Below, piece by piece: positions 16,040-60,649 of a DNA stretch of 64,000 bases. The stretch covers positions 28,924,293 to 28,988,292 of the forward strand of contig JAHRHZ010000019.1 in NCBI GenBank assembly GCA_024137785.1, given 5' to 3'. The position numbers were made by a program, and so were the translations under genes. The first letter of the stretch is position 1. Each line of letters opens with the position of its first letter. The stretch comes from Ginglymostoma cirratum. Lineage: Eukaryota. The notes beneath the pieces are model-generated. The model was not told the DNA's origin and searched no databases. It saw nothing but the letters and a program-made list of their open reading frames with translations.

Positions 16040-16287
16040 CAGATATTGAAACTTGCTCGCTGAGCTGGTGTGTTTGTTTGCAGATGTTTCGTCACCCTGG
16101 TAGGTAACATCGTCAGTGTGCCTCCGATGAAGTGTTGATGTTCTGTCCCGCTGGTTATTTATATGCCTCGGTTTGCTGGGTGGTTGGTATTACTTCCAGT
16201 TTTGTTCTTCAGTGGTTTGTAAATTGGATCCAGTTCAATGTGTTTGTTGATGGAGTGCCAGTTGGAATGCCAGGCCTCCAGGAATGA
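16040..16287 (-). mobile_element. PLE (Penelope/Poseidon-type) 3' end
   Basis: Minus strand encodes FLEAWHSNWHSINKHIELDPIYKPL (GIY-YIG C-terminus), followed by a hammerhead-bearing terminus. Confidence 0.85.
16083..16116 (-). ncRNA. Minimal type-I hammerhead ribozyme core
   Basis: CUGACGA-U-GUUACC[UACCAG]GGUGAC-GAAAC-AUC. Confidence 0.75.
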
Positions 16288-17819: not shown

Positions 17820-17937
17820 GTCAAAGATAGTAAGAACTGCTGATGCTGGAGTCGAGACAAGGGTCCCGACCAGAAACGTCAACTTTGCTACTCCCCTGAT
17901 GCTGCCTGACCTGCTGTGTTCCTCCAGCTCCACATTG
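17820..17937. mobile_element. 118-bp inverted PLE-terminus mini-element with a 13-bp TSD
   Basis: tgaccacgggaga at 17807-17819 and 17938-17950; the insert is a minus piece plus a plus piece of the PLE terminus. Confidence 0.85.
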
Positions 17938-18574
17938 TGACCACGGGAGAAGGTTTTGAGATCAGGCAATGGCCACCAGTGGCATCATGTTGTATGATGA
18001 ATTCTCCTGCTGCTGTTCATGTTGTATGCGTTGTACTCTTGGTCATCATTTAGTTTGGCTTGTACAGAGTTTAATTTATATAATGTAGTGTGGGGAAAGC
18101 CTCTAGTATCAAATGAGAAAAGGCATTTGTAGTTTATTTCATAATAACAATCAAGTACAAGTTACATTGGTATGATTGACATTGTTACTAAGACTTTGAG
18201 GAGACCTAAATGGAAGGTCAATATTCTTTGAGAACTAGGTCTCTTCTCCCACCCATAAATCTTATGACATCATCACTTTGGTTAAACTCGATACATTAAC
18301 CCTTTCAGAATCAAGCACCTTGTACAGCAGACTACTCAAGCAAAAACATTTCCCATTGTCCCACAAGGGATCTTGGTGAAGGAGGTGGAAGGCCTATTGA
18401 AACATCCATATCTGACAACAATTCATTTTTGCTGAGGGCTTATCAATGTCCATTAAATCTGAATTTTAAGGGATTGATTTTATCTGAACACCATCAATAA
18501 ATGATCAAAAACTATTCTAACTTTGAAGAATGAAGTTAGGTCAAACTCTGTGAATTTGGTTTTGGCTAGTATGT

Positions 18575-34634: not shown

Positions 34635-36175
34635 CTGCCACTGGTCTGGCAACATCTGTGAAGAGAGAAACTGAATGAACATTTTGAGTCCGGTATGACT
34701 TTTCTTCCAAGCTGAAACTGGCTGGAAAATAGTGCGTTTTATGCTTTTGACACAGCGGGAGGAGGAGTGAGTGGAACAGATGGTAAGGATGCCCACAACA
34801 AAAGGTAGTGCTAAGAGAGATAGAAACTTAAAAGAAAATGATAGGAGTGGAAAGAGTGCAAAACCAGTAAGGCACAAGAAAGGCATGGTTAGGGAATGGG
34901 GCTGGGGGTGCGGACTTAATCAAAATTGATGTCAGAATTAATGCTTGAAGTAGTTTAACTCAATGTCCTAGAGGCTATAAACTGGCTTAATGTAAAATAA
35001 GGTGTTGTTTCTCCAGAGATTACACAGTGTGGAGCTGGAGGAGCACAGCCAGGCCAGGCCAGGCAGCATCAGAGGAGCAGGAAAGTTAGTGTTTCGGGTT
35101 TGGATCGTTCTTTAGAAATGATTTCTGAAGAAGGGTTCTGACCTGAAATGTCAACTTTCCTGCTGTTCTGATGCTGCCTAGCCTGCTGTGCTCCTCCAGC
35201 TCCACACTGTGTTATCTCTGACTCCAACATCGGCAGTTCTTACTATCCCTGTTGTTTGTCCAGCTTGCATTGAGCTTCATTGGAATACTGCTACAGCCCC
35301 AGGATGGAAATGTTAGCATGGGAACAAGTTGGTAACAGGAAGATTATTCTTATGGACGGAGCAGAGAGTGTTCTGTAAAAACAGTCGTCCGGTATAGTCT
35401 TGACAACGTAGAGGAGACCACATTGTATCAGTGTATACTGTAGATTAGATTGGAAGAATTACAAATGAAACAGCACTTCATTTAGAAGATGTGAACCTTG
35501 GACAGTGAGGAGAAAAGAGATAAAAGGGAAGTTGTTAGTCTTCTGTGATTGCATAAGAAGGTTCCATGGATGTTGGAGAAAAGTAAGGAGTGATGGAAGA
35601 GTGGAGCGGGATGCAGAGAGGGCATGGTCCCTATGGGGTATTGACAGTGGTTGGGAAGGAAAGATGTGTTGGTGGTTGGCACTCTGTTGGAGGTGGCAGA
35701 AATGATGGAAGATGATTCTTTGAATGTGAAAATCTTGAATCTGAAAACTAGTGAGGTGGCAATTGAGGGGAAAGGGAAACCCTATCATTGCTCTGGCCAA
35801 GATGGAGCCGGAAATGCAGGTTCTAACTGGATACATCTGATGGTCCAGTCAATCATGATGGGGAGAGTGGCACCCGGTGGAAGATAGCTTCATAAGAACA
35901 TGTGTAATGGAAATGGAGAAACTGGAAGGATGAAATGAGTCTTTGGGGAAGCAGGATGTGAGGAAGTGTAGTCAAGGTAACACTGGGAGTCAGTGCTTGT
36001 AATAAATAATGGTGGGCAGCATATTGCTAGAAGTGGAAACAGCAAAGGCAAGTAAAAGGGAAATATCAGCAATGGATCAGGGGAAAGTGAGTGATAGATG
36101 GAAATTGGAAGCAAAATTGATTATTTTTTCCAGTTCGAAACAAGAGCAGGAAATAGCACCAATAACATCATCAGT
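34635..36175 (-). mobile_element. Old Neptune-type PLE (RT end, GIY-YIG and terminus), interrupted
   Basis: Minus-strand HIQRIIFHHFCHLQ and GTFLCN homologous to the 36966-38172 element. Confidence 0.75.
35017..35249. mobile_element. Fold-back (palindromic) PLE-terminus mini-element with a 14-bp TSD
   Basis: Two head-to-head ~100-bp arms centred near 35120; tgttgttt(c/g)tccag at 35003-35016 and 35250-35263. Confidence 0.85.
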
Positions 36176-36986
36176 GCGGGTGGGAGCTACAGTAGGACTG
36201 GAACAAAAGCTATAGCAGACACTGCATGTTCCTTCTTCAAGACTACGTGAGCATTGACATGACCATGGAAAAGAGGCAGGCAGTTAGGGTGCCCAAACAC
36301 ACACCCTGAACTTATAATTGCTCACCTTACCTACTGATCCAGGAGAAAACCTATTAGAAATTTCCACAATTCATCTGCACCTTCTTTGCACCAGGACGAA
36401 AAACCAGAAGTGTGCAGCTAAAGTGGAGCCAGAAACTTTGGAGCAGGCATAATTTTATGGCGTCAAAAGACACTGAATGCTTTCCACTTGCACTCATTCC
36501 TTCCTCTTACCGATTGAAAATGAACATATTTTATACTTCTATTTTTCTCATGGCGATTGTGTTGTGACTAATTAGGATTTTACTACAGCTGGTATTTTCA
36601 ATGAGGTGAAAGAGGCATGGATGAATTAATGAACTGATGGAATTAGGAATGAGACACTGCTGTTAATGTTAGGTCATTATATTGTTTGAATCTTGTGTGT
36701 TAATTCAGCTTTCTATTCAAGACACCACCTACTTAAATTTTCAAACATACATCATTCCCACATTTGAAGGTAAACTTCCCTCATGTCAACTGGACAAACA
36801 GAAACATGCAAGTCATGGGAAAATAAACTCTCTGGTTTTACAAAGTTTTCCACCTAAAGGTCTGGATGGGAAATATTAGACTTCGATGTGAACTAAAGCT
36901 GCCATTTGAGTTTGGGGCCTTTAGTCAAGCTACAGAAGTAACATTACTTCATTTGAAGCAAGTAATTCCACTCCCGTACATCTCAG

Positions 36987-37778
36987 ATGTCCTCATTCTT
37001 CAAGGACCGCAACTTCCCCCCCGCAGTGGTCGAGAACGCCCTCGACTGTGTCTCCCGCATTTCCCGCAACTCATCCATCACACCCCGTCCCCGCAATAAT
37101 AACCAGAAAAGAATCCCCCTTGTCCTCACGTACCACCCCACCAACCTCCGGATCCAACGCATCATCCTCTGACACTTCCGCCATCTGCAATCCGACCCCA
37201 CCACCAAAGACATTTTTCCCTCCCCACCCTTGACTGCTTTCCGGAGGGACCACTCCCTCCATGACTCCCTTGTCCGCTCCACACTCCCCTCCAGCCCCAC
37301 CACACCCGGCACTTTTCCCTGCAACCGTAGGAAGTGCTACACCTGCCCCCACACCTCCTCCCTCACCACAATCCCAGGCCCCAAGAAGACTTTCCACATC
37401 AAGCAGATGTTCACCTGCACATCTGCCAATGTGGTATACTGCATCTGCTGTACCCGTTGTGGCTTCCTCTACATCGGGGAAACCAAGCGGATGCTTGGGG
37501 ACCGCTTTGCAGAACACCTGCGCTCAGTTCGCAACAAACAACTGCACCTCCCATTTGCAAACCATTTCAACTCCCCCTCCCATTCCTCAGACGACATGTC
37601 CATCCTGGGCCTCCTACAATGCCACAATGATGCCACCCGAAGGCTGCAGGAACAGCAAATCATATTCAGCCTGGGAACCCTGCAGCCCAATGGTATCAAT
37701 GTGGATTTCACAAGCTTCAAAATCTCCCCTCCCCCAACCGCAACCCAAAACCAGCTCAGCTCGTCCCCGCCTCCCTAA
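36987..37778 (+). pseudogene. PLE polyprotein C-terminus: GIY-YIG endonuclease (in-frame stop at 37170-37172)
   Basis: FPCNRRKCYTC...NVVYCICCTRCGFLYIGETKR...RFAEH...LQPNGIN. Confidence 0.9.
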
Positions 37779-38044
37779 CCTGTTCTTCCTCTCACCTATC
37801 CCCTCCTCCCACCTCAAGCCCCATCTCCTATCTACTAACCTCATCCCGCCCCCCTGACTTGTCCGTCCTCCCTGGACTGACCTATCTCCTCCCTACCCCC
37901 CCACCTACACTCACCTTTACTGGCTCCATCCCCGCCTCTTCGACTTGTCTGCCTCTTCTCCACCTATCCTCTCCTCTATCCATCCTCTATCCGCCTCCCC
38001 CTCTCTCCCTATTTATTTCAGAACCCTCTTTCCCTCCCCCATTT

Positions 38045-38072
38045 CTGATGAAGGGTCTAGGCCCTAAACGTC
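38045..38072 (+). ncRNA. Minimal hammerhead motif, core mutated (GAAA to UAAA)
   Basis: CUGAUGA-AGGGUCUAGGCCC-UAAAC-GUC. Confidence 0.6.
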
Positions 38073-40789
38073 AAGCTTTCCTGCCCCTGTGATGCTGCTT
38101 GGCCTGCTGTGTTCATCCAGCTTCACACCTTGTTATCTCGGATTCTCCAGCATCTGCAGTACTTATCATCTCTAATACTTCTTCTTTAGCATTTTTCCTT
38201 TCACATGACTATATGCTTCAGTTGGCTACATTGCCCTTACCCAGATTTCTATAATGCTGACCATTTGTGCTGTGAAGTGGGAAACAAACAGCCCTGGAAA
38301 GTTTCATCAAAGCATTAAACATCAAGATGTTGATGCCTTGCATTGTTAGCTTAAGATCTTGTACAATTAACTATCTACTACATTATTAGCGCCATCACTA
38401 AGCTGCAAGAACACATATATCTGTTTTTGTCTATTTTCTGACAGACATTGAGATTTTTTTTCCTGAGTATCACTGGAGGCTTTGAAAATGTATCTGAAAT
38501 TGACAAAGTATTTGTACAGATGTGCATTTTGGTGATGGGGGAGGGTGGGAGAAGTGGGGTGATAAGTACAGTCAGGTACAGAGCAGGATATCAATTGAAT
38601 AATGATTACAAGTGAACTCACTGTGGTGCAAGCACCTGTTGTTTAACTGAAGGAATGTCCTTACTAGGCCTTGAAGCCCAGCTTTGTTTCTTTTTTGTCT
38701 TCGTTCTTTAGCTGGTGTACAGATTACACTGAGGGCACAGGGGAACAGCCGTTTATATGCTTTGTGGTCAGTACTCTGGGGATTATCTCCAAGTCAATGT
38801 TTATGGAGTGCCGCAGCTAACACTGCCCAGATGCTCTATCTGTGGGAAACCCTGAAACCACACTACACTAGGCTTGCGGTGTTGTCAGGGATAAATACTC
38901 TTTCCTATTCAGGCCGTTTGTATATACTCAAGTTTTTTTCACACCAACTGAGTGAGCGTAGTGGCAGTTAAGGCAGATGCAAACATAGCACTACCGGTGA
39001 AATGCCTTACAGATGTTTGAGGTTACCAGTTCTTCAGGTTATTAGAATCCAGAATTGGGATTTGAAGCCCTGATGGGAGGTGTATTTTTGCCCCTGTTAT
39101 TTGCTGTCATGTGGGTTTACAGAATGCAGTGGAGGTGCAGGGAATTGCTTCAACCACATAAGGCAAAGTTTCACACAGAAGTCTAGACCACAACAGGATC
39201 TGGAAAAAGAGACCAGTCATTCTTAGCTCACACACAAAAAAACCTAACTGTTTACTTCCCTTTCAGGAGCTATAATTAAGATCACCAAAGCTTCAGTAAA
39301 GGCATCAAGACCCTACCTGAAAGCTACTTTCTCTTCGTACTTGCAGCAGCATTAGTATTTTAGCAGAAGTTGATCTTTCTCATTTGATTGTCCTTGAAAT
39401 TTTAATGTTACCAACTACCTAGGCATCTGCACAAATTTAAAGGCTAATCTCCATGATTCTGTTGAGAACAATCCTACACAACAATCAGAAGGGTGGTGAA
39501 CTATTGACACAATTCTTCAAATACAGGGAGCAACGAATGGTTCATTTTAAGTTGCCAATGTGCATTGGAACCCTGAGCAAGCCTTGGTCCATGTTCATTC
39601 ATAGAATTTTCAAGGAAGTTCAAACTTTCGACTTCCAGTTTAGTCAGCTCGGACTGCTGCCTGATTCTTTATGGCAATGGGATCAGCTGGCCACAAACCA
39701 CGGAGACTTGGGCTGTTTGCCCTGAACTTATCCTGGTTTTTAAGTGAATTTCCTAAAGAGATTTTGCCAGTAGTTAAGGCCTGTTCACAGACGGAGCTCG
39801 AAGCAATTCAGCTGGAGTGTCAAAACACATCAACAACCATGGCAACCCCTGGCTATGGTCATCTCACCACCTAGCAATATTCATTCACCACCTGCCTGTC
39901 TTCCAAACAATGCTCATCCCTTCCCAACAATGTTCGGCCCTTATCCCAGCTTCTCAACAATGTTCATTACCCTCTTGAAATTTTATTCTTGGCATTATTT
40001 GGCTAATGCATAATATTTACAGAATCTGTTGAGGTAAGGAAAACACTAACGCTAATAGGAAAATCTTACCACAAGGTTGTCTTGGGTAGTTGCAATGTTG
40101 TGAAGTCTAAGCACAGTTGATCCTTGCTGGGTCTTGACTCAGGCCTGTAATACTCTGGATGTCATGTATTGACTTAAGTTTAGTCATATTAATCCCTGCC
40201 ATACTGCTGTGCCCTCCGTTTGGTTATGCCCTGGTATAGCCTCTGGTTGCACCTTTGGAGCCAAATTTCTTGGGGCAGTGGATCAGCTTCCTTTTGTACT
40301 GCATGTCTTGCACTGAAATTGGAATTTGGAGTGTCTTTGCAGTGGGTGTATTGGACTGCACTTGCCACAACTTGCTTTCTTTTTATATCCTGGCTACAGT
40401 GTCTAAATTGTTTACTCACCTTATGCTTACAAGTGCTGTTAGACTTGTATTTTCAGCCATTAGCTAACAGTGAATCAATGCCATGCAAGAGAGAAGTCAG
40501 GTGGTGTGGTGTAGTGATCTTAGTGAAGTTATGAATAGTTAGTCTGAGACTCTTCTGGGCACTAAGAGATTGCAAAAAGTCTTGGTTCAGCTCAGACATT
40601 TGCCAGGAAGAAGAATGAAGTCGGTGGTTAGGAAGTAAATTTTATAGTTGCCAGCACAGCATTTCAGAATCTGGGACCAGATATCTGGGCTGTCCCATCA
40701 TGCACTTAGTTTAGTGATGTTATAATCCATAGCCTTGCTCTTTGTTCCTGTGTCAGCTGTACCGAGTTTACAGAAATCCTGGCTTCATG

Positions 40790-48722: not shown

Positions 48723-50088
48723 AGTTACAGATACTTGGGGATGCTCCTTGATAATCAACATGTGAGATGAGCATGAATGGTGTGAGAGAGGGTGTGCAGG
48801 CAGCTGAAGATCAGGCCTCCTGGGCTTAGGTGAAAGTTTGACAATCATGACAAAGGTGACAGAGGTGAAAGAGGTTACAATCAGCAAAGGGGATGCCAGA
48901 GGTGCTCTGGGGAGCATTGCTGCTCCTCTTGGATCACAAGGAGTGCTATAAAAAGCACTTAGAGTCTGAAAGCAGCAGCTGCCACCTCCACCCCCTTGGG
49001 ATCTTCTGAGCCCTGGGCAAGTCATCTCATACCAGTTAATTATAAATCAGACTTTCAATTATACTGTGGGAACCCAATTTAACAATGTTAATGGGGATTC
49101 CCTCCTCTCCAAGATAGGATATTTACATGTCTTTCTGCATGCTGTGTACTAATGACGACAGGGTTTTGGATTTATTCCTCAATTTTTATGGTTCAAGCCT
49201 CCTGTGATGCCTTCTCCTGCTCATTGTGGATGTGGGAATTCATATTCCCTTAACCCCGTGTTTTCTAACAAGCCTCTTGTTTAATGTTTTCTGACCATCC
49301 ACATACTTTACATGTACATACAGGATTCACTAATCAACCACTTCTTCAAAAGATTTCTGCTGAATTTATCAAATGCAAATTACTTTTAACAAATTTGTAA
49401 TTAATATTGGAATAGTTGTCATTGTTGCATCTTTTTCTTCCTTTTGTGAAATTATTATTTTGTTTGAGTTTTTAGACTGCAGGGGAAATATGAATTTTTT
49501 TTATTATTCCTATATTCCGTGGAATTCAAAGCAAAGATAGAATTTAAATGCAGGACATACTGTCCATGATATCACACTGAGCTCTTCTTTACTGCACTAC
49601 CACAACATTTTCTTCATCACACACAATGTAATGATCAGCTACATCACTAAAACATTACAGAAATTCTTCTATTCATGTCCAAACATCACCCCAACAACAC
49701 AAACATAACCTGAATCTAAAATTACAGATCAAATATTTGTAGGAAAAAAAATCAATAAATGACAGTATCAACAGAAAACAGGCCAGAACCTTATTGCATA
49801 TGGCATTTACTGTGCTAACATGTGACCATACTGTTCTTGGGTTGCTGAGTCAGACTCACAGAGTCCACAAATATGACAAACCACACGACTGATTCTGAGA
49901 TCTATCCCTGCAGAAATTGTTGAGGCTCAGCATTATTTTGAAGAAGTTCAAGCCTTTTTATTTTAAATTTCTAAATGGAGCCTTGAATCTGCTTCCAAAA
50001 TAGCGCAACCAATTGCAGGGAAAGCTGCAGGATAGAACCTACACTAGAACAAATTGATTTTGTATTGTAAAAACCAAAAGAACTGCGG

Positions 50089-50488
50089 NNNNNNNNNNNN
50101 NNNNNNNNNNNNNNNNNNNNNNNNNNNNNNNNNNNNNNNNNNNNNNNNNNNNNNNNNNNNNNNNNNNNNNNNNNNNNNNNNNNNNNNNNNNNNNNNNNNN
50201 NNNNNNNNNNNNNNNNNNNNNNNNNNNNNNNNNNNNNNNNNNNNNNNNNNNNNNNNNNNNNNNNNNNNNNNNNNNNNNNNNNNNNNNNNNNNNNNNNNNN
50301 NNNNNNNNNNNNNNNNNNNNNNNNNNNNNNNNNNNNNNNNNNNNNNNNNNNNNNNNNNNNNNNNNNNNNNNNNNNNNNNNNNNNNNNNNNNNNNNNNNNN
50401 NNNNNNNNNNNNNNNNNNNNNNNNNNNNNNNNNNNNNNNNNNNNNNNNNNNNNNNNNNNNNNNNNNNNNNNNNNNNNNNNNNNNNNNN
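50089..50488. other. Assembly gap (400 N)
   Basis: Run of N. Confidence 1.
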
Positions 50489-50684
50489 AATCAGGAACAA
50501 AAACAAAGTTGCTGGAAAAGCTCAGCAGGTCTGGCGGCATCTGTGAAGGGAAAAACAGAGTTAACGTTTTGGGTCCGGTGACTGAGGAAGGGTCACCGGA
50601 CCCGAAACATTAACTCTGTTTTTTCCTTCACAGATGCTGCCAGACCTGCTGAGCTTTTCCAGCAACTTTGTTTTGTTCCTGATT
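50489..50684. mobile_element. Near-perfect fold-back PLE-terminus element
   Basis: Arms 50489-50582 and 50592-50684 are reverse complements with few mismatches. Confidence 0.92.
50582..50612 (+). ncRNA. Minimal hammerhead ribozyme core
   Basis: CUGAGGA-A-GGGUC[ACCG]GACCC-GAAAC-AUUA. Confidence 0.7.
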
Positions 50685-50769
50685 TCATACTCTGTTGCTC
50701 CTGTATAGTTTCTTCACTGAAGCATAGTTGAGTTAGCTTGCCATGGCCTTGGCCCTGTGCCTTTAAGTC

Positions 50770-51414: not shown

Positions 51415-51775
51415 GGGTCCTTCTATGGGCATTGAAGGAATTATGGGTGGAGAACCATGCCTCTAGGAATTCCTGTGCGTGTCTATGTTTGGCTTGGGCT
51501 ACTATGGTTACCTTGTCTGTAATGTAGTCAACAAACATATAGATATGGGCCACACATAAAAACCCATACAGATCAAAACCAGAAATGACATTACTTACCA
51601 TATTGGACCGGACAGTATAAATTCCAAGCGGAGTAAGAAGAACACCGCTTCATCTGAGGCTCCACTGATGATGTCACCTAGCATGGTGAGGAAACGTAGG
51701 AATGAGAACGAGCTAGCTCAGTGAGCAAGTCAGCGACTCACCCACAACCCAAGCTACAAATCTTTGCCAAAATGT
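51415..51775 (+). mobile_element. Penelope/Poseidon-type PLE end with 5' inversion
   Basis: Minus strand VTIVAQAKHRHAQEFLEAW joined to plus strand NKHIDM..; terminus homologous to 16040-16140. Confidence 0.8.
51665..51698 (+). ncRNA. Minimal hammerhead ribozyme core
   Basis: CUGAUGA-U-GUCACC[UAGCAU]GGUGAG-GAAAC-GUA. Confidence 0.65.
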
Positions 51776-59140: not shown

Positions 59141-59447
59141 TCCTTTTGAAGACAGGTATTTAACAATGAGCTGGCATCATTATTTTTCAGCTTTTTGTCT
59201 TTGTATGGTGATCTCAATCCCACAGGAGAAGAAACAAATATAGATGGAAAATTAAAAGCTCTTATTTCATAAGCTGTTGAAGGTGTCATATTGTTGACCA
59301 ATTTGTAACAAATGTCTTTGTATTTTTTTATTTGTTTGATGGAATTTGGAGTTGCTGGCTAGACTAGTTTTATTGCCCATCCTTAATTGCTTTGAAGATG
59401 TTTCATTGTGCTCGGCATTTGATCTGTTAGAATAATTGTAGAACTCA

Positions 59448-60435
59448 TTCTTGGTTGCTGGGTCAGATTGCAGATGGCGGAAATGGTGGAGAATGATACG
59501 TTGAATCCAGAGGTTGGTGGGTCTATGAGTGAGGACAAGAGGGATTCTATCTTTGTTTTTGTTGTGGGGAGCGGTGTGAAGGGAGGGGTGGGGATGATCC
59601 CACAACCAAGGATATATTTCCGTCCCCACCCCATCTGCCTTCTGTAGGGACCGTTCTCTTCACGACTCCCTCATCCGCTCCACACTCCCCACTAGCTCCA
59701 CACCCCCGGCACCTTTCCCTGCAACCGCAGGAGGTGCTACACCTGCCCTACACCTCCCCCCTCACCCCATTCAAGGAACGAAAAAAACCTTCCACATCAC
59801 ACAGAGGTTAACCTGCACATGCACAAATGTGGTCGAATGCATCCCCTGCTCCCAATGTGGCCTCCTCTACATTGGTGAGACCAAGCGGAGGCTTGGAGAC
59901 CGCTTGTAGAGCACCAGCGTTCTGTTTGTGGCAAACGACAACACCTTCCAGTCACAAACCACTTCAACTCCCCCTCCCACTCCCTGGGTGACATGTCCAT
60001 CCTGGGCCTCCTCCAGTGTCAGAATGACGCCACCCAAAAACTGGAGGAGCAGCACCCCATATTCTGCCTTGGGAGCCTAGAACCCAATGGCCTAAATGTG
60101 GATTTTACTAGTTTTAAAATCTCCTGATCCCCGGCCTTATCCCATGACCAACTCTCCTCTTGTCCCCGCCTCCTTGACCTGACACAACCTGTCTATCTTC
60201 TCTGCCACCTATCCACTCCTCCTATCTCACTGACCAATCCCCACCACTGCCTACCTGCACTCGCCTATCACCATTCCACCTACCTTCCCCAGCCCAACAC
60301 CTCCTCTCTCTATTTATTTCCCAGCTTCCTTCCCCCTCCCCATTTCTGAAGAAGGGTTCCGACCCCAAATGTCAACTTACATACTCCTCTGATGCTGCCT
60401 GGCCTGCTGTGTTCTTCCAGCTCCACACTGTGTCA
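59448..60435 (+). mobile_element. Neptune-type PLE with inverted 5' segment
   Basis: 59448-59595 is minus (RIPLVLTH..IQRIILHHFRHLQSDP); 59598 onward is plus with CGLLYIGETKR; degenerate hammerhead at 60346. Confidence 0.9.
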
Positions 60436-60649
60436 TACCTAACCGAGGGTTCAGCTCTGCTCAAAGCTGTGTATTGCACCTGCCAAATGGAGAAAGTTGC
60501 AGGACAAAGTCACACACTGACAAGATGGAACCTGGCAAAGCAACCTGACTCAAACATTTAGAATATAGAAGATCCAAGAATGCATGCCACAAAATATGGG
60601 TTAATCTGTCTGACATTTACTGCTTCTCAGCTGAACACAAGAAATTGGA

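Follow-up and report, generated by a model that had tools for sequence, protein, structure and literature searches.

The palindrome at positions 35017–35249 of the window, the 64,000-nucleotide stretch of Ginglymostoma cirratum DNA analysed here, consists of two Penelope-like-element (PLE) termini joined head to head at the predicted start of the PLE RNA. This pair is coding-free and was likely made in a single insertion event, without the ability to copy itself, and we consider it highly probable that such pairs as a whole are dead-end by-products. The first-pass annotation had offered two readings, a self-propagating retroposon centred on a ribozyme and a stereotyped product of PLE integration; fixed ends together with varied joins bear out the latter. 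The relevant features of the window are:

34643–36204, minus strand: older, decayed, 5′-truncated host PLE, running from the RT region to the endonuclease end and then into a family-2-type terminus at about 34643–34807
35003–35016, plus strand: left copy of the 14-bp TSD, whose final 3 nt fit the arm too; single copy in host relatives
35017–35119, minus strand: short (left) arm, parent +1 to about +98, with a 6-nt insertion and without tail
35088–35115, minus strand: broken minimal hammerhead, with G5 lost, stem II disrupted by the loss of two pairs, and the cleavage triplet changed
35120, no strand: centre junction of one base
35121–35249, plus strand: long (right) arm, parent +1 to about +129, also holding the start of the parent reading frame
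35125–35152, plus strand: minimal type I hammerhead as defined in the available text of PMC4209133, with core boxes kept, the stem II closing pair now G-U, and stem I of at most 2 bp
35219–35249, plus strand: PLE tail of about 31 nt, on one arm only
35250–35263, plus strand: right copy of the TSD
36966–38173, plus strand: neighbouring 5′-truncated copy of the parent family, subfamily B, with GIY-YIG domain, C-rich 3′ region and TATA-like box, then an arm with tail
50069–50685, no strand: second head-to-head pair, family 2, with the tail on the left arm and a 400-N run within that arm

Inverted-repeat analysis of the window places the arms at 35014/17–35119 and 35121–35220, meeting across the single base G35120, in agreement with the earlier description of two PLE termini of about 100 bp set head to head. 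The whole forms a hairpin of about 230 bp (−165.7 kcal/mol, z −17.4), and none of 200 shuffles folds equally well. Identity between the arms is 84%, with differences at many positions, and the extra ~31 nt of the right arm make the unit asymmetric. The 14-bp TSD reported before is confirmed, with 1 mismatch in 14, as is the non-coding nature and PLE origin of the unit, which has no protein coding capacity and whose arms are the front of a PLE. The C-rich sequence upstream of +1 may have templated the centre base G35120, or the base may have been added; a copied cap base may also be its source, and would be indistinguishable from a base templated on the other arm.

The palindrome was said to lie inside an older PLE, and this holds on two counts, the match of the host to the parent RT region and the single-copy site in its relatives. 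The host, on the minus strand, shares 59% DNA identity with that region at 35917–36173 (E 1e-11), and in translation the insertion site falls within its C-terminal endonuclease motif. Both flanks of the palindrome belong to one older repeat. In three of the four host relatives aligned in detail, L191, L194 and L195, the match reaches the insertion site and runs through it without a break, the duplicated sequence being present once.

The arm corresponds to the first ~130 nt of a parent unit and comprises the hammerhead, the reading-frame start and the tail; copies that continue past the tail enter the ORF. The parent is best seen in L201, a decayed near-full copy in which an arm is followed by a unit of about 3.4 kb and by the arm again, ending at +97, so that pLTR-like arms stand at both ends. 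RT motifs are visible in L201, and the best ESM Atlas match, at a score of 0.96, is an RT cluster in which 27% of the members carry RVT_1; for the RT domain there was no Pfam match in the parent frames and nothing significant when the RT piece was compared with PDB sequences, and Pfam scans of the whole decayed frames of host and parent gave no match. The GIY-YIG endonuclease of the parent family is recognisable in the neighbouring copy at 36966–38173, which is 78% identical to L201, matches PF01541 at 37197–37790 (E 2.6e-5, above the cut-off) and ends in the same arm. Parent translations also hold a CX4CX2C linker ahead of the endonuclease. The available text of PMC8557442 gives a CX2-5CxxC linker in this position as a Neptune/Nematis feature, and because the CX4CX2C linker fits this definition the parent is, as judged from its translations, a Neptune/Nematis-type PLE.

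Some further observations concern parent copies. In the parent 5′ region (e.g. L167, 1370–1560) the arm appears to be an open frame from end to end, and the family-majority position lacks a clear ATG, most copies reading ACG there; the parent tail ends just before a splice-donor-like hexamer. Another 5′-truncated parent copy, at 59447–60443 of the window, carries at its 5′ end an inverted piece of about 135 nt from the adjacent ORF, overlapping by about 18 nt in parent coordinates; the arrangement resembles a twin-priming inversion.

The head-to-head arrangement recurs throughout the genome with variable centres. A junction pattern of 13-nt arms around a free centre, which detects only junctions with both arms within 30 nt of the CUGA box, matches 2,304 genome sites exactly, a few of them counted twice across N runs, and the control gave 0. 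Among the first 50 sites listed, less one overlapping row and the second site in L151, 47 of the 48 centres are distinct. The exact centre of the 35120 locus is found at 46 of the 2,304 sites (2%); 30 of these were fetched and six rows, representing three junctions appearing twice across an N run, were set aside, and the remaining 24 have a left-hand tail in 13 cases, a right-hand tail in 6 and no assigned side in 5, with arms from several subfamilies. The whole element likewise has many full-length look-alikes whose centres differ (40 places scored of 5,045 candidates). Sequence outside the window, sampled at round coordinates, contains 6 pairs in 177 kb of non-N sequence, or about 1 per 30 kb, which corresponds roughly to the order of 100,000 pairs per genome (Poisson range ~36,000–210,000).

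Assembly gaps bear on these counts. In L070/L071, L081/L082 and L086/L087, and also in pairs on C9 and C12, the same junction is seen twice, 400–600 bp apart; in the three L pairs an N run lies between the two copies, which affects the counts. Junctions doubled across an N run are probably one palindrome assembled from both sides. Palindromes often stand beside N runs in this assembly, and some joins there may be assembly errors. A further palindrome in L028, downstream of the matched one, has a centre with repeated copies of the arm's first 20–40 nt, an extreme templated insert.

While the centres vary, the inner ends are narrowly placed: all 96 arms stop upstream of the CUGA box by 0–7 nt, and in 76 the distance is 2–5 nt, although the pattern allowed more. 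The inverted truncations with random centres that had been named as the outcome contrary to an independently replicating family are therefore found only in part, as the centres do vary but the junctions are not random, being clustered within 7 nt of the predicted RNA 5′ end. In non-inverted (read-through) contexts, a TATA-like hexamer stands at −31 or −32 from +1 in 19 of 35 and at −33 or −36 in 2, the exact hexamer being absent in 14, and the upstream sequence is C-rich. The start itself fits an initiator consensus. From motifs and junction positions only, +1 is predicted to be the transcription start. Among ORF-bearing copies, too, we count 13 of 19 that start between +1 and +11 and have no upstream sequence, and in several copies (e.g. 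L004) the ORF front is joined directly to a second arm at +1.

Outer ends are also restricted. At 38 of 42 N-free sites one arm ends at 125–131, and the other ends at 92–101 in 22, earlier in 14, at 102–124 in 5 and at the tail in 1; 19 of 42 second arms thus miss both the ~98 site and the tail end, which counts against the dual-priming origin proposed below. Tail/tail and no-tail/no-tail pairs occur too. In 241 kb not chosen by junction, family-1 arms end at 94–101 or 128–131 in 30 of 34 cases, and arm ends overall are bimodal, at about 98 and about 129, some 31 nt apart, which is the known PLE tail. A TSD of at least 10 bp is present at 31 of the 42 N-free sites versus 5 of 400 random pairs (mode 14, mostly 12–15 bp); the TSDs of pairs measure 11–19 bp and are of free, variable sequence. 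Microhomology at the priming ends is small and inconsistent.

A search with a single arm (n = 29) found natural upstream sequence in 16 cases, an inverted arm in 7 and another start near +1 in 6; with 7 of 29 inverted, palindromes make up a substantial minority of copies. Joins away from +1 exist as well (L181, L182 and window 17822–17939) and are invisible to the junction pattern, their frequency lying outside its reach. The variant pair at 17822–17939 has an inverted tail only (positions 92–131) joined to arm 13–91, with an apparent 13-bp duplication. A different arrangement is seen in L004 (~1496–1990, query orientation), where a three-part insertion lies within an apparent TSD: an inverted arm; an arm with tail and about 80 nt of ORF front; and a second arm from +1 with tail. 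This three-part insertion fits a jump from the RNA start.

The hammerhead, which had been placed in degenerate form on each strand, is decayed with its boxes kept on the plus strand, but on the minus strand it is broken and not merely degenerate. Across the family the core is intact in 89 of 144 arms, a figure to be read with the junction patterns selecting for part of the motif, and both cores are kept in 27 of 76 pairs; stem II of the arm is kept and its loop is variable. As far as the available text of PMC4209133 (Cervera and de la Pena 2014) describes them, the minimal type I hammerheads of metazoan PLEs share with this family, which fits their type, the CUGANGA box, one extra base before stem II, a G-C closing pair, a palindromic 15.2–16.2 pair and the lack of loop 3; unlike them, stem I here is at most 2 bp, and the present pair has one broken copy and a second that is predicted to be trapped by the hairpin. 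An Rfam scan of the window gave no hammerhead family match. The predicted probability of stem II is 0.5–0.7 in the parent 5′ end, 0.01 in the 35017–35249 arms and 0 in the full hairpin, and in this folding model the hairpin is predicted to block the remaining hammerhead at 35125–35152. The motif stands at the palindrome centre because the parent RNA is predicted to have it at its 5′ end, and we infer that it is a passenger in pair formation.

The origin that we consider probable is dual priming, in which both target strands would prime short cDNAs reaching the RNA 5′ end, which are then end-joined. The PLE endonuclease would cut the two target strands about 14 bp apart, and both cut ends would prime reverse transcription at internal RNA positions, near +129 for one end and near +98 for the other. 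The two cDNAs would run off at the RNA 5′ end, the TATA/initiator start just before the hammerhead, and their ends would be joined with small templated or untemplated inserts. A cDNA jump to an interior or 3′ position of the RNA, instead of a join, would yield longer partial-tandem copies. The arms would usually be of one source and sometimes of two different RNAs. The resulting stub is likely dead on arrival because the 35017–35249 palindrome has neither an upstream TATA-like promoter motif nor the RNA region beyond the tail.

According to the available text of Frangieh et al. 2024 (PMC11167929), the anole PLE protein acts on both strands in vitro, cutting and extending them, starts at two internal sites bounding the tail and needs RNA downstream of these sites; hammerhead cleavage is not needed, and a dimer is predicted. 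Like this Poseidon element, PAc, the present family has two putative start sites that bound the tail, about 100–130 nt into a region beginning at the hammerhead. Unlike it, the parent here has the Neptune/Nematis CX4CX2C linker, and the in vitro support for dual priming thus comes by analogy from another clade than that of the parent. The main text of PMC11167929, in its available portion, gives no account of cDNA–cDNA joining or of ORF-less palindromes. In a broader reading, towards which we lean only slightly, the stubs may be a fossil record of some 100,000 events of PLE integration, in which a dimeric protein with two adjacent priming sites on a TATA-driven RNA makes two short ‘strong-stop’-like cDNAs, sometimes from two RNAs, that are joined head to head; on this view one intermediate would yield inverted pLTRs by a join and direct pLTRs by a jump, with no need for antisense self-priming.

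A fold-back origin is the doubtful but weightier rival, and it too would yield a dead end. One tail-primed cDNA would reach the RNA 5′ end and self-prime, or antisense RNA would do so, and the copy would be joined to the other target end. Self-priming on antisense RNA was proposed by Arkhipova et al. 2013 (PMC3846280, available part of the Discussion), and the likeness of the two arms agrees with such copying as well as with dual priming from one source: after one duplicate row of L070 was left out, 76 insertions comprise 39 A/A, 33 B/B and 4 unclear, with 0 A/B among the 72 clear pairs, and rare variants are common to both arms above chance (11 vs 1.6 expected, and 12 vs 0.7 expected). Of 25 centre inserts of at least 8 nt, 14 match the first 34 nt of the arm (2.95 expected), in keeping with either origin, and some centres are perfect palindromes, which suits fold-back. 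What it fails to explain is the second-arm stop at about 98, an end point of non-palindromic copies too, and the tail/tail and no-tail/no-tail pairs also speak against it. Nor can it make arms of two haplotypes. Two stem II haplotypes differing at two non-CpG sites occur in 590 and 240 matched pairs genome-wide and in 31 mixed ones, where random pairing would give ~750 and mutation alone, by our estimate, ~2 (2 × 830 sites × 0.03 squared, based on ~5% divergence outside CpG sites with 60% transitions assumed, and leaving aside intermediate haplotypes and later conversion). Of 20 mixed loci fetched, 15 are N-free, and 9 of these carry a TSD. Arms thus seem to come mostly from one source and, in a few per cent of pairs, apparently from two, the 31 mixed sites suggesting that two RNAs took part in some events. 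The ~96% of two-haplotype sites that are matched are explained equally well by fold-back copying or by later arm-to-arm conversion.

The remaining explanations fare far worse. A PLE-mobilised, retrozyme-like hairpin retroposon, its RNA cut by two hammerheads and reinserted as a unit, is very improbable, even though the 2,304 exact matches, the uniform size and TSDs, the 46 sites with the exact 35120 centre and the 27 of 76 pairs with both cores would suit it. A copied master element would fix centre and orientation, and as neither is fixed a self-propagating family is not supported: the test set out in the first-pass annotation, a collection of palindromic copies examined for a shared fixed centre, instead gave 47 of 48 centres that differ, and the centre of the 35120 locus, which is the simplest possible join, accounts for 2% of sites, among which both tail positions and several subfamilies occur. 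Moreover, the unit has no upstream TATA-like box or RNA downstream of the tail, the predicted stem II probability is 0 in the full hairpin, and the hammerheads face outward on opposite strands rather than in tandem, so that for the bulk of pairs this reading is largely refuted. Assembly error, or the chance neighbouring of two independent insertions, is hardly credible; many palindromes do adjoin N runs, some with the junction on both sides, but at 35003–35263 the many differences between the arms, the lack of any N, the one TSD around the pair and the continuous host relatives stand against it. A DNA-transposon MITE with terminal inverted repeats would be equally short, non-coding, inverted-repeat-shaped and numerous, yet its probability is practically negligible, as the tail makes the ends asymmetric, the TSDs are 11–19 bp of free sequence, the centre varies and the arms form part of an RT + GIY-YIG element. 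The earlier view that these units only look like MITEs is supported, symmetric ends and a fixed short TSD being absent.

As described in the available text of the sources, pLTRs that are direct or inverted, with an optional 30–40-nt tail, are a feature of endonuclease-bearing PLEs and are seen here; the inverted 5′ copy, one-sided tail of ~31 nt, variable TSD and hammerhead in the pLTR are shared with Adineta Pen2a_Av (PMC3846280), the scheme of PMC8557442 and D. virilis Penelope (PMC2377424). The inverted pLTR, single tail and TSD are thus published PLE features, and the insertion is a minimal form of a known kind. It differs from the PLE insertions in the accessible portions of these three sources in that no ORF lies between the ends, the inverted pair being the whole insertion, in that the inner ends of the two arms lie only a few bases from a single predicted transcription start, and in that such pairs occur about once per 30 kb. 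A literature search, with most subscription journals, supplements and Repbase/Dfam notes outside its scope, turned up no account of PLE pairs that lack an ORF and are anchored at the RNA start, nor of arms from mixed sources. Animal non-LTR retrozymes, as presented in the available parts of PMC7229834 and bioRxiv 10.64898/2026.07.22.740005, are similarly non-coding and PLE-related, with a type I hammerhead and larger TSDs; they consist of direct tandem repeats whose same-strand hammerheads release circular RNA, whereas the palindrome is an inverted pair with one outward-facing motif per strand and no fixed monomer. An identity with these retrozymes was rejected, as direct tandem monomers with same-strand hammerheads are absent.

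As an object the 35017–35249 pair is ordinary, and its class bears on how PLEs finish integration and why inverted pLTRs form. So far as the accessible text goes, PMC3846280 proposes antisense-RNA self-priming, and PMC11167929 deals with initiation only, placing it at two internal start sites and on both strands. With two fixed outer ends, a fixed inner stop, variable joins and a two-haplotype minority, the genome counts provide testable predictions for the existing in vitro system. Additionally, these hairpins of ~230 bp are frequent and can pass for MITEs or microRNA precursors.

Pairs are formed repeatedly, as had been suggested, and in more than one sequence family. The second pair of the window, reported earlier as the same design in another family at 50489–50684, retains this status through its 83-nt arms, which are 95% complementary, but its left arm is interrupted by the N run (50089–50488, with the tail before it at 50069–50088) and its TSD candidate matches at just 10 of 14 positions. 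Family 2 contributes 4 head-to-head pairs to the 241-kb sample. An Rfam mir-3202 match at 50537–50637, on both strands, was rejected as a generic hairpin-shape match (53 bits vs a cut-off of 90). Hammerhead-like cores with a longer stem II are present at 51665–51694 (plus strand) and 16087–16116 (minus strand), and apparently represent a third repeat family.
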